From: Desulfobacterales bacterium
GTDB taxonomy: Bacteria; Desulfobacterota; Desulfobacteria; Desulfobacterales; UBA5852
Reading direction: 5' to 3'
Length of the DNA: 64,000 bases
NCBI GenBank assembly: GCA_963674755.2
Contig: CAXXVS010000003.1
Coordinates: forward strand, 192,001-256,000
A program made the translations under genes and the position numbers. The notes beneath the pieces were generated by a model. The model made no database searches. It saw nothing but the letters and a program-made list of their open reading frames with translations, and was not told where the DNA came from. Positions 52,247 through 58,259 of this stretch are shown here, in pieces. Within the stretch, counting starts at the first letter, position 1, and each line of letters begins with the position of its first letter.

Positions 52247-53116
52247 ATGAAGAAAAACGAAACCCCCCTGGATATAAACTGGCTAAACAGCAGGGCAAAA
52301 TATGACCGACAAGCCAGGAGCCCGGAAGTGCTTGATGCTTTTCTTGCGGAGGTGGAGAAAGCCCATATAACCTTGGCCGATTTAGGATGTGGGACGGGAA
52401 GCAATGCCCTGTTCTTATCGGAGAATTTGACTTCCCGCCACGCGGAATTTCATTTGGTGGAACGCGAAACATACCTTCTGGAAGAAGCCCGGCGACGCAT
52501 CAGGGAGAAAAATGCAGGATGTTGTGAGGAACACAATAATGCCGTTTATCTGAAAAATGGCGAATATCAGCATGCCTTTTATTTTTACAACGAACTGACA
52601 AGTGAATTTATGCGTCGCAAGGTAGACTTGCAGGTCGTATGTGCCAGTGCGCTCTTCGATTTGTTCACGGAGGATGAATTCCATGATCTGCTCAAGGGTT
52701 TGAAGCGGAGACATATGTCACTCTATGGCGTACTGAATTATTGCGGAACGGAATTTTCCCCATCGTGCGGAAGGGATGAAAAATTTGTAGGCTTATATGA
52801 AAACCATATGTCCCGCTTGCTGCGTAAAGGGCGCCCTATGGGTAAACGAACGATGACCTGTATTCAGGATGTGCTGAATCCGGAAAACGGTTGGAATTTA
52901 ACCGTTTCAGATAGCCCGTGGCTATTGGGTGCCAAAGAATCCGCTTTTATTTCCCAGAATCTGGCTTTTTATAAAAATGCGGTGCCGGAGTTGATATTGA
53001 ATCAGGAAGAGCAAACTGAATTCAATGAATGGATGGTGGAAAAGAAGAGAATGATTGCGGAACGAACGCTTGCAATGCGCGTTTATCATCAGGATTTTTT
53101 CGCAAGGTGTCTATGA
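52247..53116 (+). CDS. Class I SAM-dependent methyltransferase
   Basis: WL..R..YD..ARS, DLGCGTGSN, ASALFDL, SPW.L; AT-richer sequence. Confidence 0.8.
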   Translation: MKKNETPLDINWLNSRAKYDRQARSPEVLDAFLAEVEKAHITLADLGCGTGSNALFLSENLTSRHAEFHLVERETYLLEEARRRIREKNAGCCEEHNNAVYLKNGEYQHAFYFYNELTSEFMRRKVDLQVVCASALFDLFTEDEFHDLLKGLKRRHMSLYGVLNYCGTEFSPSCGRDEKFVGLYENHMSRLLRKGRPMGKRTMTCIQDVLNPENGWNLTVSDSPWLLGAKESAFISQNLAFYKNAVPELILNQEEQTEFNEWMVEKKRMIAERTLAMRVYHQDFFARCL

Positions 53117-53952
53117 TCGTGTCTCACAATATACGCCGCTACTACGAGCATAACGAAAAAAAGTTCCGAAGACTTGGTATTGATACCAGAGATCACAATA
53201 TTCACCAGCCACTGTGGGACCGCAACACCAAAACAAAACGGCAGGCAGCCAATTACGCGAATCATTTGATGTTAAGGATCATCAAAGATACCTTAACGGG
53301 AGGAAAAAACCGAATTAACGTCCTGGATCTCGGCTCAGGATATGGCGCAACAATCAAGTATATTTTATCCAATGCCGATGCGGCTGCGCTGGAATTCTCC
53401 GGCATCACGATCAGTAGAGCACAAGCCGGTTTTGCCAGAGAGAAACTGGGTGAGCGTGTACGCATTGTTTGCAAAGATTATCATGACCTTTCCCGCTATT
53501 TCAGGGGCATGGATATCGTATATGCGATTGAAAGCGTTGTTCAAGCCCGGAATCTATCCGTTTTGTTGCGTGAAGTTTCCAGGGCTTTAAAGCCAAATGG
53601 CCTCTTTGTGGTTATCGATGATTTTATTGATGATCAAAGGGATCCCGAAATTGCCGATAGGCGGATAATTCATGACTATCAGGCCAACTGGTTTGCGGAC
53701 GGTTTGATGGATTCTAAATGTTTTCAGGCACTAGCCCTGAAAAACGGGCTGCGGCTGAAAAGAGCTGACAATTTAAACCCATACGTGAAGTGGTCTATGA
53801 GGTCGCGGGTGACGGCGTTATTGTATCTAGCGGGTTTGCGGCACGCTGACAATCTTTACTTGAAGTCATTGATCGGCGGCGGGGCGCGACAAGTGGCGAT
53901 CAAGAGGGGGATCCTGAATTATCGAATGGCCCTGTTTACCAAATCCCCGTGA
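53113..53952 (+). CDS. Class I SAM-dependent methyltransferase (sterol/tocopherol MT-like)
   Basis: VLDLGSGYG, GITIS..Q, YAIES, LKPNG; ATGA overlap with the previous gene. Confidence 0.85.
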   Translation: MIVSHNIRRYYEHNEKKFRRLGIDTRDHNIHQPLWDRNTKTKRQAANYANHLMLRIIKDTLTGGKNRINVLDLGSGYGATIKYILSNADAAALEFSGITISRAQAGFAREKLGERVRIVCKDYHDLSRYFRGMDIVYAIESVVQARNLSVLLREVSRALKPNGLFVVIDDFIDDQRDPEIADRRIIHDYQANWFADGLMDSKCFQALALKNGLRLKRADNLNPYVKWSMRSRVTALLYLAGLRHADNLYLKSLIGGGARQVAIKRGILNYRMALFTKSP

Positions 53953-54315: not shown

Positions 54316-55755
54316 ATGAAACAATTCTGTCATTATCACCCTGCCAAGCCGGCCTACTGGTCCTGCCAAAGATGCGGCAAGACCATGTGCCAGGAGTGTG
54401 TCGAAGCCCGGGATATGGGGGGCCACCGCCAGGGACAAAAGCTCCACGTCTGCCCCAACTGCAACCTGCCGCTCCATTGGCTGGGCGTCGGCAACATCAT
54501 CGATCCCTTCTGGAAACGTATCCCCAGGTTTTTCCTTTATCCTCTCTCCCTCCGGCCGCTGACCTTGATGCTGGGATTGTCGGTGGTTGCGGCCCTGCTG
54601 CCCAAGGCAGGAATCCTGGCCATCGTGGGGGCCGTCGGGATTTGGGGGATGGCGTTCAAGTACGCCTATGCGATCCTCAAAAACACGGTGGGCGGCGACC
54701 TCACCGCGCCGCCTCTGAATGCAACGAACCTCTATAAGGATTTCGGACCGGTCGCCAAGCAGGTCGGCATCTATGCGGCGTTCTATTTTGCGGTGGGGTT
54801 TGTGTTCATAGAAATCGGCCGGGGCGTCGGAATCCCCTTCCTGATGCTGGCCACGCTGTTTTTGCCCGCCATGATCATGCTGCTGGTCTGCACCGAATCC
54901 CTGCTGGCCGCGCTCAATCCGCTTATGTTCGTAAGGCTGGCCGTGAAGATCGGGTGGGGCTATCTGTTGATGTACTTCTTCTACAGCACCCTTGCCGGAG
55001 CGCCGGCCTTGCTCGGCCATCAGGTGCTGCCCCTTTTGCCGCCGCTGCTGCACGTTTTTCTCTTCACGCTCCTTCAAATCTACTACACCTTCATATCCTA
55101 CCACCTTATGGGATATGTTATCCTGCAATACCACGAGGCCCTTGGCTACCAGGTTGATTTCGAGGATTTCAAAACCCCGGATGCGGGCCAGGGGGGCGAC
55201 GCCGCTGCGGCCGATTCCCCCGAGGCCCACTTGCTCAAGCGGATCAATCAACAAATCAAGGACGGCGACCACGATGGTGCGCTGCGAACCATTGAGAGGG
55301 AAACCGGCGGAAAGAGGATTTCCGATCCGCTCCTTTCCGAGCGCTATTTTACCCTGCTGAAGATGACCGGCGCGGAAGAGCTGCCGTCACACGGGCGCCA
55401 CCACCTGGAGCTTCTGGTACGCGGACAGAAAAAAAGCGCGGCGCTCAGCGTCTATATGGACTGCCGGTCCGCAGACCCCGCCTTTGCGCCTTCGGCCGGA
55501 AGCCTGTTCAAGCTTGGCGGGTGGCTCGATGAAGCCGGTCAATCCAAGGAAGCCGTGGCCGCCTTCAGCACATTGACCAAGGCCTATCCCCAGGATCCGC
55601 TGGTGCCCAAGTCCTATTTCCGGGCGGCGCAGATCATCCACGCCCGGCTCTTGAACCCGAACAAAGCCCGGACGATCCTGGCGGGTTTGATCAAAAAGTA
55701 TCCCCAACACGACATCATCCCGTTTGTGGAGCGCTACCTGGCCCAGATGGGCTAA
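54316..55755 (+). CDS. B-box zinc finger - DUF4013-like membrane domain - TPR-like protein
   Basis: C.YHP...C..C....C..C...CPNC; PFW.R; several TM helices; C-terminal TPR-like ..YP repeats. Confidence 0.75.
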   Translation: MKQFCHYHPAKPAYWSCQRCGKTMCQECVEARDMGGHRQGQKLHVCPNCNLPLHWLGVGNIIDPFWKRIPRFFLYPLSLRPLTLMLGLSVVAALLPKAGILAIVGAVGIWGMAFKYAYAILKNTVGGDLTAPPLNATNLYKDFGPVAKQVGIYAAFYFAVGFVFIEIGRGVGIPFLMLATLFLPAMIMLLVCTESLLAALNPLMFVRLAVKIGWGYLLMYFFYSTLAGAPALLGHQVLPLLPPLLHVFLFTLLQIYYTFISYHLMGYVILQYHEALGYQVDFEDFKTPDAGQGGDAAAADSPEAHLLKRINQQIKDGDHDGALRTIERETGGKRISDPLLSERYFTLLKMTGAEELPSHGRHHLELLVRGQKKSAALSVYMDCRSADPAFAPSAGSLFKLGGWLDEAGQSKEAVAAFSTLTKAYPQDPLVPKSYFRAAQIIHARLLNPNKARTILAGLIKKYPQHDIIPFVERYLAQMG

Positions 55756-55779
55756 CACGGACAAGACCGGGCAGGCTTC

Positions 55780-57249
55780 TCAGCGGGCGCCGTCCGCTTT
55801 ATGGATGATGGCCGCCTCCGCGGAATCCGGATACCGTTTGCGGATCAGGCGTCGGTAGTCTTCCCAGCGGTCATGCCGGCCTTTTTGCCGAAAGGCCTGG
55901 GAAAGCTTGACCAGGCTCGACGGCAGACCCGGCGTCTGGGGCTGCTGCTTCATGATGGCCAGGATGATTTTCTCGGCCCCGTCGATATGGCCGGCCGTTA
56001 CCATGGCCCCGGCCACCTGCAGGTACAGCGGAATCGCGAGACGTGGACGGCGGGCCAGGTCGGCATACGCCCCATAGCATTCAACGGCGGCGGCATGATC
56101 GGCCCGATTGCGCAGCAGGACGTGCAGCCGCCGGCGGGCCGTGTCGTGGAAAACCTCGGATTGGGGATTGAGTTTATGGATATTGAAGAGATGTTTGAGG
56201 GCCTCCGGGTCTTCGGGTGACAACACGAGCACCTGTTCCAGCAGGCGCCGGGCCTCGGTCATCTCCAGTTGACCCATGTGTTCCAGGGCCTGATGCATCA
56301 AGCGCTGGGCTTGTTCTTGCGGCGACGCCTTGAAACTGTCCCGGTCAACACGGCTTAACCATCGTTTTGCGGCCACGGCCAGCAGCGCGCCGGTGACAAT
56401 GCCGCCGATATGCGCCACGTAGGCCACCTGGGTGGCATCGCTGAAATAGAGCTGATAAACTTCATTGGCCAGCCAGAGCGGAAGGAGCAGGATGGCCGGA
56501 ATTGCAACCGTGTCGAAGAAGAACCCGAGGGAATAGAAGACATTCACCCTTGTCCTGCCATACAGCACCGTGTAAGCCCCCATCAACCCCGCAATCGCCC
56601 CGGAAGCCCCCACCAGCGGCGTGGTACTGGAAGGATAGACCGCGCAAAATGCGGCTGCCGCCGCCAAGCCGCTCGCCAGATAAATGACGAGAAACAGAAC
56701 GCGGCCGGCACCGATCTCCAACATGCATCCCAGGATCCATAAAAAAATCATATTGCCCACAAGGTGCCCGACATCGCCGTGCAGAAACATGTGGGTAAAG
56801 AAGGTGGCGGGTCGTGGATAGGCCGGCCGGAGCCCGAAAGAAAACGCCGTGCTCTGGTTGCGATGCCGCTCGTAGGTGTGACGGGATGATTGCCATAGCG
56901 CAAACTGGGAATCTTCGCGCGGAATAACGCCGCCGTCCCTAAGGCGGTCAAGAAAAGCCGCATCTTCTTCCATCGCCATATGGACCGCCATGGCGGCTTC
57001 CACATCCATGGCTTCGATATCCTGCTGCTCGGGGGTGGTCTTGCCCTCTGCCTTCAGATAGTCGACATAGAGGGGTATTTCGATCTCGGCCAGGCCCGAG
57101 TCAAAATAGTACTGCTCGGCGGCAATCCTGTTCTCGCCGTCGTTTAATTGAAACACGAAGAAAACAAGACAATTGACCACCAGAAGTGTCAATGTGGCCA
57201 GCGGCGGGTTTTTCCATCCGATTTTCCCGGATACAGGTATAATGAGCAT
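55780..57249 (-). CDS. Rhomboid intramembrane serine protease with TPR-like C-terminus
   Basis: FLHG..GHL.GNM, GASG (catalytic Ser), AHIGG (catalytic His). Confidence 0.92.
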   Translation of the reverse strand: MLIIPVSGKIGWKNPPLATLTLLVVNCLVFFVFQLNDGENRIAAEQYYFDSGLAEIEIPLYVDYLKAEGKTTPEQQDIEAMDVEAAMAVHMAMEEDAAFLDRLRDGGVIPREDSQFALWQSSRHTYERHRNQSTAFSFGLRPAYPRPATFFTHMFLHGDVGHLVGNMIFLWILGCMLEIGAGRVLFLVIYLASGLAAAAAFCAVYPSSTTPLVGASGAIAGLMGAYTVLYGRTRVNVFYSLGFFFDTVAIPAILLLPLWLANEVYQLYFSDATQVAYVAHIGGIVTGALLAVAAKRWLSRVDRDSFKASPQEQAQRLMHQALEHMGQLEMTEARRLLEQVLVLSPEDPEALKHLFNIHKLNPQSEVFHDTARRRLHVLLRNRADHAAAVECYGAYADLARRPRLAIPLYLQVAGAMVTAGHIDGAEKIILAIMKQQPQTPGLPSSLVKLSQAFRQKGRHDRWEDYRRLIRKRYPDSAEAAIIHKADGAR

Positions 57250-57314
57250 GACGTTCTTCCCTGGAAGCCAGAATGATGCCGTTTCAAAATGTAAAACGCT
57301 CACGCTTGAGGGAA

Positions 57315-57343
57315 ATTAAAAAGGCAATCATCCCATATGTCAA
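57315..57343 (-). promoter_or_regulatory. Sigma70 promoter of the rhomboid gene
   Basis: TTGACA-17 bp-TTTAAT on the minus strand. Confidence 0.5.
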
Positions 57344-57500
57344 ATGCTAATACCGGCTCCCCTGCGATCAGCAGGTTCTCCCGCCAGTCGTAGCGGCCGG
57401 TTAGGGAGGGCGGGGATAGGTCTGTTCGGTGGGAATTTCGGTGCATCAATCCACTCCCGTTTGAGTTTGCCAATTTGCCGGATGACCACCCGGCTTTCGC

Positions 57501-58001
57501 CTACCAGCCGTAGATGCGCACCACAGCGCGTTGCAGCAATAGGCGCAGGGTGGCCGCGTCGGTGTCGCTGAGGGGACAGCGGGCCTTTTTAGCGCCCCTG
57601 CTCAGGGACATAAAATAGCCGAAGCGCTCACCCCGTTGCAGCTGCAGACAACTCTTCGGCAGGGTGCCGTCGCTGCCGCCGCCCCGGACCTTGTTCGGAT
57701 CGTGAACAATTTGGCAGGTCCGGCCCTCCAAGCCCGCCAGAATATGCTGGATATCCGTGTCGGAAAGCTTCATCACGACCTTGCCGGCCCAGTCGTAGAC
57801 GAGGTTGCCGTGTCGGTCGGCTTGGTCGACGGCATTGGCCATCTCGACCATTAGGTGGCCCTTTTTCAGGACATGGACGTCGCCGTCGCGGGCGGCAAAG
57901 ATCTCGCCGTCAAAATGGGCCGGCTTCAGGGTAAACTGCACCGCTCCGGTGCGATTGTGGATCTTGAATGACGGGCACTGCATCTGGGGTTGATCACTCA
58001 T
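57501..58001 (-). CDS. Whirly-like single-stranded nucleic-acid-binding protein
   Basis: AGGAG RBS; ordered motifs FKIHNRTGAV, KKGHLMVEMA, YDWAGK...LS.TDI, CQIVHDPNK, GYFMSLS, PLS..DAA.L and terminal GW match the plant Whirly domain as I recall it. Confidence 0.75.
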   Translation of the reverse strand: MSDQPQMQCPSFKIHNRTGAVQFTLKPAHFDGEIFAARDGDVHVLKKGHLMVEMANAVDQADRHGNLVYDWAGKVVMKLSDTDIQHILAGLEGRTCQIVHDPNKVRGGGSDGTLPKSCLQLQRGERFGYFMSLSRGAKKARCPLSDTDAATLRLLLQRAVVRIYGW

Positions 58002-58044
58002 GGGTCGCTTCTCCTGGTTGGGATTTTAATAGCGACCGAATATT

Positions 58045-58060
58045 AGCAATTTTCGTACCC
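58045..58060 (-). promoter_or_regulatory. Putative sigma54 promoter of the Whirly-like gene
   Basis: Minus strand GGGTACGAAAATTGCT (GG-N10-GC), 44 bp upstream of the ATG. Confidence 0.45.
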
Positions 58061-58259
58061 GCATACCGCTTGCCCGGTCCCCCACATTCGTGGCCGCCGG
58101 ATGGCCATCGGCCACGCCTTGCGGCTACGGGCTTTTTCCCACGCGCCGGCGATGGTCTTTATGGTATCCTTATACGTGGTTTGGTATGGGTACCCCCATG
58201 CATTGCCCGGTTTTCAGTGCAGCACCGCCCATTTTTAAGCGCGTCCTTGCAGGGGAGAA

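Follow-up and report, generated by a model that had tools for sequence, protein, structure and literature searches.

Within the window, the whole 64,000-nucleotide stretch of a Desulfobacterales genome analysed here, a minus-strand gene assigned to the Whirly family is preceded by a ribosome-binding site and, further upstream, by a predicted sigma54 promoter and two copies of a palindromic operator (Table 1). The open reading frame starts with ATG and its product ends in IYGW; its coordinates and the presence of a ribosome-binding site, of the AGGAG type, agree with the initial annotation. An AGGAG or GGAGG core is also present 5' of the start codon in the upstream regions of homologues. The host-like, GC-rich codon usage reported at the outset was confirmed, with a GC content of 61% and a GC3 of 78%, the latter inside the range of neighbouring genes (rhomboid, 71%; ICMT, 70%; selO, 83%). 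Phage or mobile genes were said to be lacking beside the gene, and none of the nine neighbouring ORFs tested (49.8 to 63 kb) is of that kind; they match ankyrin, TPR, rhomboid, ICMT-like, GSDH, DPBB_1, SelO and, in two cases, methyltransferases. The gene is under purifying selection, with a dN/dS of 0.11 against a same-genus copy and of 0.25 against a distant copy. It is not an assembly artefact, since a near-identical gene and promoter were found again in contigs of two other public runs (X4 and X5; 2 and 3 differences).

Table 1. Features of the Whirly locus, with positions in the window.
Feature	Position	Strand	Basis or remarks
Whirly-family gene	57501..58001	minus	166 aa, 18.4 kDa, pI 9.2, without transit peptide or acidic tail
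Ribosome-binding site, AGGAG core	58008..58015	minus	similar core 5' of the start in homologues
Sigma54 (-24/-12) promoter, GG-N10-GC, predicted	58045..58061	minus	12/13 consensus positions, 60 bp 5' of ATG
Proximal 18-bp palindromic operator, TGC(A/C)C-N8-G(G/T)GCA, predicted enhancer for sigma54 activator	58204..58221	unstranded	matrix score
Distal degenerate operator copy, 22 bp from proximal	58226..58243	unstranded	matrix score

Several overlapping contigs of one run stack at 57337-57435, 3' of the Whirly stop codon, suggesting a short repeated intergenic element. In the one RNA run, which covered 6% of words, three short pieces were recovered, one of them spanning 193 nt across the gene end and the repeat, and these give no evidence of expression. 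Further along, two SAM methyltransferase genes (52247-53952) have a low GC content (46-47%, GC3 about 50%). The same two genes directly adjoin the Whirly gene in another genome (G004, locus L005), so the TPR and rhomboid genes lying between them in the window (54316-57303) were either inserted in the host or lost in G004.

The product had been proposed to be a complete Whirly domain with the motifs of the plant WHY proteins in their usual order. In a Pfam search, Whirly (PF08536) was the sole family match (47.9 bits for a cut-off of 23, E 1.6e-12), and phmmer against PDB sequences returned plant WHY proteins as the six top matches (AtWHY3, 2.7e-5; PBF-2, 1.3e-4). A profile built from 33 clade members gave 6 matches in the PDB sequences, all of them WHY proteins (E 2.6e-7 to 2.5e-5), and aligned YDW..K, HDP.K, G.F.SLS and the terminal GW in register. 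Residues R17, D70, W71, K74, H100-D-P-N-K104, F127, F130 and G165-W166 are invariant in 33/33 clade sequences. The structure predicted by AlphaFold2 from a 60-sequence alignment (pLDDT 95, pTM 0.87) consists of strands, a helix at 81-91, further strands and a helix at 146-163, that is, two sheet-helix repeats in one chain. PBF-2 was the top Foldseek match (TM 0.77, E 1.5e-10), and the best 13 matches listed were all WHY entries. In a wide fold search of 48,161 chains, StWhy2 ranked first (Z 17.5, rmsd 2.0 over 147 residues), followed by PBF-2 (Z 17.0) and, as third fold match, MRP1/2 (Z 14.0), with Pur-alpha at 8.4. Profile, motif order and duplicated fold of the predicted monomer all bear out the original proposal, and the 166-aa protein is almost certainly a true member of the Whirly family.

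Plant organellar Whirlies (StWhy1/PBF-2 p24, StWhy2, AtWHY1-3; PDB 1l3a, 3n1h, 4koo, 4kop, 4koq) share with the bacterial protein a PF08536 match above cut-off and a duplicated sheet-helix fold in a single chain (TM 0.70-0.77, Z 17.0-17.5), at 17-24% sequence identity. Whereas the plant proteins have a transit peptide, the first strand of the bacterial protein begins at residue 12 and clade members measure 163-168 aa. The plant KGKAAL motif is replaced by NRTG(A/S)V in the bacterial clade, its second lysine aligning to T18 (MAFFT) or A20 (HMMER) and never to a basic residue. The initial description therefore stands: the protein is a stand-alone Whirly that lacks a transit peptide and has a changed version of KGKAAL. 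Plant WHY proteins bind ssDNA as tetramers; cooperative binding and 24-mers depend on the KGKAAL lysine, whereas binding of the tetramer to short ssDNA does not (PMC3245945). Because this lysine is replaced, the bacterial Whirly is expected to form tetramers without 24-mers. Algal Whirly-like proteins also lack KGKAAL, according to a review (PMC9070903). Two more distant Whirly-like proteins (L089 and L090; Pfam 23.2 and 26.9 bits) have a GGKAAL or GKNAAA start nearer to the plant motif and perhaps form another subfamily. Unlike plant WHY, all 33 clade sequences (33/33) end at GW, with neither an acidic or aromatic tail after it nor the acidic C-terminal tip of an SSB-type hub. The bacterial Whirly very probably binds ssDNA.

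The trypanosome proteins MRP1/MRP2 and Pur-alpha (type I PC4-like fold) have the same superfold, but at about 11% identity, with an rmsd of 4.5-4.6 and no sequence-profile match to the bacterial Whirly. An RNA-binding or RNA-chaperone protein, comparable to MRP1/2 or to the RNA-associated pool of plant WHIRLY1, would fit with the third rank of MRP1/2 among the fold matches, with the association of plant Whirlies with intron RNA (PMC9070903) and with the RNase H gene lying directly 3' of two homologues (L095, L132). We consider it improbable, as both identity and rmsd place the protein nearer to WHY (24 and 20%; 2.0-2.2) than to MRP (11%; 4.5), and as the regulon and gene neighbours described below are DNA-centred. 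The same superfamily includes, in prokaryotes, the PC4-like ssDNA binders YdbC, S. pneumoniae SP_0782, Borrelia Bpur and T5 PC4, as well as the sPC4/Whirly-fold domains of Shedu and Menshen; such bacterial fold relatives are described in PMC7549692, the Shedu preprint and PMC12065111. According to PMC7549692 and the Shedu preprint, these are single-repeat dimers or fused sensor domains, whereas the bacterial Whirly has two repeats and a sequence-level PF08536 match.

We identified 39 close prokaryotic homologues with 55-93% identity, bearing Desulfobacterales-type names where named, which points to this order for the host, most likely a relative of sulfate reducers. The host-type clade is patchy, being present in 5/41 relatives and, within the order, in 13/351 genomes that cluster in four families; 400 further genomes of the host phylum gave four weaker matches. 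When all 50%-level representatives were scanned, 69 proteins were obtained, a few of which are repeat artefacts. Scanning genomes with an archaeal-type alignment produced 131 loci, of which 80 were kept (14 archaeal, mostly Micrarchaeota, and 66 from Verrucomicrobia), and evenly drawn genome samples contained Whirly in 12/201 (class of G745) and 24/201 (phylum of G746) cases. None of the 14 control genomes, Synechococcus and Caulobacter among them, gave a match (0/14). The broad alignments A2, A3, A5 and A6 were without a conserved stretch usable in such locus scans. As the closest relatives of solved structure come from plants, contamination or a recent acquisition of the gene from a plant or alga might be invoked; either is hardly conceivable in view of the 39 close prokaryotic homologues, the host-like GC3, the bacterial promoter and ribosome-binding site, the dN/dS of 0.11, the recovery of the gene in contigs of other runs and the separate branch (97) formed by eukaryote-like proteins in the tree described below.

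The family is also well represented in viruses. IMG/VR contained 18 Whirly loci, some of them duplicates and all of other clades, including large phages, and 43-100% of the ESM Atlas neighbours of the family are viral. In our viral searches for the host clade itself (alignment A1), 62 stretches were obtained and none was confirmed; no viral contig carried the nearest sister set (A8), tblastn against 50,697 GenBank phages gave no match to the host clade, and 0/15 proteins matched PHROGs. A phage origin of the host clade was rejected on these grounds. A domesticated phage SSB, acting as a nucleoid factor or as an anti-phage factor that binds phage ssDNA and unrelated to DNA uptake, would agree with the many viral clusters of the family, with the patchy distribution (13/351 genomes of the order) and with the proposal that sPC4/Whirly-fold domains are sensors in Shedu and Menshen (Shedu preprint, PMC12065111). 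We regard this as quite improbable, given that no viral contig has the host clade or its nearest sister set, that the protein has neither effector domain nor defence neighbour, and that the relationship to the domains of Shedu and Menshen is one of fold, these not being established as PF08536.

A quick tree (80 rows, 149 columns), whose backbone is open, joins the host clade (97) to eight unassigned proteins (96). One branch (97) unites the 13 eukaryote-like rows, of which two carry names from their source and the others were assigned by us, and the row closest to it is P0108 (94). Sisterhood of the host clade with plant Whirlies was not seen in this tree, so that the clade is not an evident donor of the plant Whirly, and the direction of transfer is not given by the tree. 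The initial annotation had suggested that the gene bears on the origin of the plant family: a prokaryotic Whirly is real, but the clade is not the closest to the plant proteins and its bearing is indirect. P0108, a tail-less protein of 159 aa with a Pfam Whirly score of 94.8 bits, is a lead for the donor of the plant Whirly.

Whirlies have been called plant-specific or plant-unique (PMC9070903, PMC6963530, PMC4154389, bioRxiv 10.64898/2026.10.24.761589), and an ancestral-state study placed their origin in the Chloroplastida ancestor (PMC11135702). At the superfamily level, the Whirly/Pur-alpha family spans three domains (PMC13392464). The label 'Whirly transcription factor' is already attached to a phage and an archaeal protein in UniProt and NCBI. 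The suggestion of an undescribed bacterial factor thus holds for a sequence-level Whirly but has to be narrowed, since the protein represents a single clade within a family that is widely but patchily distributed among prokaryotes and phages and is partly auto-labelled. The occurrence of the family outside plants is already visible in databases; what is new is the sigma54 promoter and an operator common to comEA, intI and a putatively autoregulated activator. In the accessible literature, mostly from non-subscription journals, no account of PF08536-level prokaryotic proteins or of the operator was found, and the supplementary motif tables of PMC4641369 may contain the operator.

No operon or set of neighbours is conserved in the host clade, where neighbours vary between genomes. 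The neighbourhood and phylogeny check called for by the initial annotation found genes for ssDNA enzymes next to Whirly in other clades, in counts that include related genomes and are not independent. priA adjoins Whirly in 34/66 Verrucomicrobia loci (divergently where checked), and a RecJ-like DHH gene lies near 7/14 and 8/24 archaeal loci. In one set of phages, RNase H, DHH, RecA or ribonucleotide reductase genes are near most Whirly loci; in another phage clade (L102-L108), Whirly ends a glycosyltransferase cluster, outside any DNA module. A distant Whirly with an SSB-like acidic tip (L088 / L110, G079:C1:957258) lies between dnaG and a UvsW-like helicase gene.

Promoter and operator are conserved in the host clade. 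A sigma54 element scoring at least 11 of 13 was found within 400 bp at 17/21 non-duplicate clade loci (identical or truncated loci being excluded) and within 300 bp at 13/21; in the host, 2419 upstream regions, each 300 bp long, gave a background of 3.6%. Three of the four loci without it belong to one subclade in which the gene is placed after another ORF. The sigma54 consensus used for this search agrees with the published tGGcacg / tTGCt (PMC4641369), and rpoN is present in the host genome. With its -24/-12 element, rpoN in the genome and enhancer-type sites upstream, the Whirly gene is predicted to be sigma54-dependent. At three loci (L120, L142, L144), long 7-base tandem-repeat tracts separate the sigma54 element from the ribosome-binding site of Whirly.

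About 160-180 bp upstream of the sigma54 element, the clade loci carry two 18-bp palindromes, 21-23 bp apart. We built an operator matrix from 19 sites of 10 other genomes and ranked 219 host sigma54 sites by their tandem score (mean -9.4, SD 7.0). The integron integrase gene intI came first (26.2) and Whirly second (24.2), with a Sel1 protein, a large secreted protein and a membrane enzyme in places three to five. A tandem score of 14 or more, attained by 0.1% of 2000 random host windows, was found at 14/21 Whirly loci, consisting of the 10 training loci and 4/11 held-out loci (another scored 13.8), and three of the four passing held-out loci are close to a training locus. At this threshold the operator was also present at comEA (7/30, in six families and including the host; control, 1/29), at intI (4/30 scored loci, from three genomes; 2/32 loci were too short to score) and at orthologues of a response-regulator sigma54 activator gene (9/10; downstream control, 0/10), the host's own copy having one strong site and a tandem score of 8.2. 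Among the seven comEA genes with the operator, only one also has a sigma54 site. A fixed operator pattern occurred at 11 and 12 sites in two genomes (G527 and G583), against one control match in 15 genomes. Its sites are followed 3' by comEA-like HHH_3 genes, integrases, one IS91-type transposase, the response-regulator sigma54 activator and unrelated genes.

The activator gene (G000:C3:498207-499559; L300:4207-5559, minus) is divergent from a histidine-kinase-like ORF. Its product is likely the protein that binds the operator and may be the master regulator of a regulon not described before. G005, G010 and G038 have the activator but lack Whirly, and the integron integrase is absent from 4/5 Whirly genomes tested. 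Loss of the activator in family f7 (0/5 at E 1e-125) was considered but not retained: one f7 comEA has the operator (30.1), and the E threshold therefore probably misses a divergent f7 activator. PilR was discarded as the activator because the major-pilin-like gene has a sigma54 site (12) and no operator, and the NtrC regulon because a glutamate-synthase-like gene, named by eye, scores 1.0. LexA control of Whirly found no support in these comparisons: lexA is present in the host, but operator scores upstream of lexA and recA were 1.8 and -5.6, and no motif common to the upstream regions of Whirly and lexA/recA was apparent by eye.

The host intI encodes a true integron integrase (TIGR02249, 415 bits). 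At G000:C2:2330000-2340600 (L303, L198), the integrase with its sigma54 promoter and tandem operator is followed by about a dozen small co-oriented cassette-like ORFs, forming an integron. Two broken integrase copies retain operator sites (C1:180959 and C3:1409143).

Since Whirly shares its operator with comEA and the integron integrase gene, the protein most likely coats incoming or recombining ssDNA, and the promoter evidence points to this rather than to a nucleoid role. In the mechanism that we propose, an unspecified signal would lead to phosphorylation of the response-regulator-type enhancer-binding protein encoded at G000:C3:498207-499559. The activator would then occupy the tandem operator and sigma54 RNA polymerase would transcribe Whirly, presumably co-induced with comEA and intI. 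Whirly tetramers would bind ssDNA without sequence preference, beside the canonical SSB and not instead of it. They would coat ssDNA arising from uptake or cassette recombination, shielding it from nucleases and mis-annealing, and might assist RecA as an SsbB-like accessory factor; plant WHY proteins stimulate RecA strand exchange in vitro (bioRxiv 10.64898/2026.10.24.761589). Replacement of SSB by Whirly was ruled out, as canonical SSB is encoded in the host, a further difference from plant WHY together with the sigma54 promoter, and in both Verrucomicrobia tested. We would put at about even the chances that the protein is an inducible accessory factor protecting incoming or recombining ssDNA.

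SsbB of Streptococcus and Bacillus is an OB-fold protein. It resembles the bacterial Whirly in being a second ssDNA binder beside an essential SSB, co-regulated with uptake genes (PMC7145681). The bacterial protein differs from it in its Whirly fold, in its sigma54/activator operator and in a regulon from which dprA and comEC are excluded. The PC4-fold protein SP_0782 is up-regulated eight-fold at pneumococcal competence (PMC7145681), which parallels the link of the bacterial Whirly with comEA.

The operator set is not a full competence regulon, because no operator was found upstream of dprA, recA, ssb, lexA or comEC, nor upstream of pilin-like ORFs (0/15, best 9.7). At the threshold used, 23/30 comEA and 26/30 intI loci are without operator, which speaks against the proposed role, and the set also includes genes without DNA link (Sel1, TPR, SDR, methyltransferase, large secreted proteins). 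The scarcity of sigma54 sites at operator-bearing comEA genes, the low recovery of held-out Whirly loci, the genomes with activator but no Whirly or with Whirly but no integrase, the variable neighbours in the host clade, the replaced KGKAAL lysine and the phage clade beside glycosyltransferase genes also count against it. Whirly could instead be a general accessory SSB for repair or fork restart; the operator would then mark a wide-ranging stress or surface regulon that comEA and intI merely accompany. The mixed content of the regulon and the core uptake genes lacking the operator are compatible with such a function, and so are the genes found next to Whirly in other clades (priA, RecJ-like, dnaG/UvsW, RNase H, RecA). 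We nevertheless hold it to be rather unlikely: the operator is missing at recA, ssb and lexA, inspection by eye showed no motif in common with lexA/recA, the DNA genes that do carry the operator all act on incoming or recombining ssDNA, and Whirly has no acidic tail for recruiting repair enzymes.

Returning to the coating of incoming or recombining ssDNA, a broader scheme, possible but doubtful as a whole, can be formulated. Part of the order would possess an undescribed sigma54 'foreign-DNA' regulon, in which one autoregulated activator controls the DNA receptor ComEA, the integron integrase and a Whirly tetramer acting as chaperone of incoming ssDNA and attC substrates, so that cassette shuffling would escape SOS control in favour of this regulon; the plant Whirly would derive from the prokaryote-phage family by transfer into the green lineage and would not be an invention of plants. 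The promoter suggests that anaerobes may link the uptake of DNA, the shuffling of integrons and the protection of ssDNA independently of LexA. The Whirly promoter offers a direct handle on function, and the small tail-less bacterial Whirlies may serve as models of the fold. The presence of sequence-level Whirlies in phages, Micrarchaeota, Verrucomicrobia and an order of deltaproteobacteria makes it testable whether the plant family came from a prokaryote or a virus. Finally, a strong single operator-like site was observed elsewhere in the host genome (G000:C3:1994222), where it follows a sigma54 element and precedes the start of a gene recognised by eye as nifH-like.
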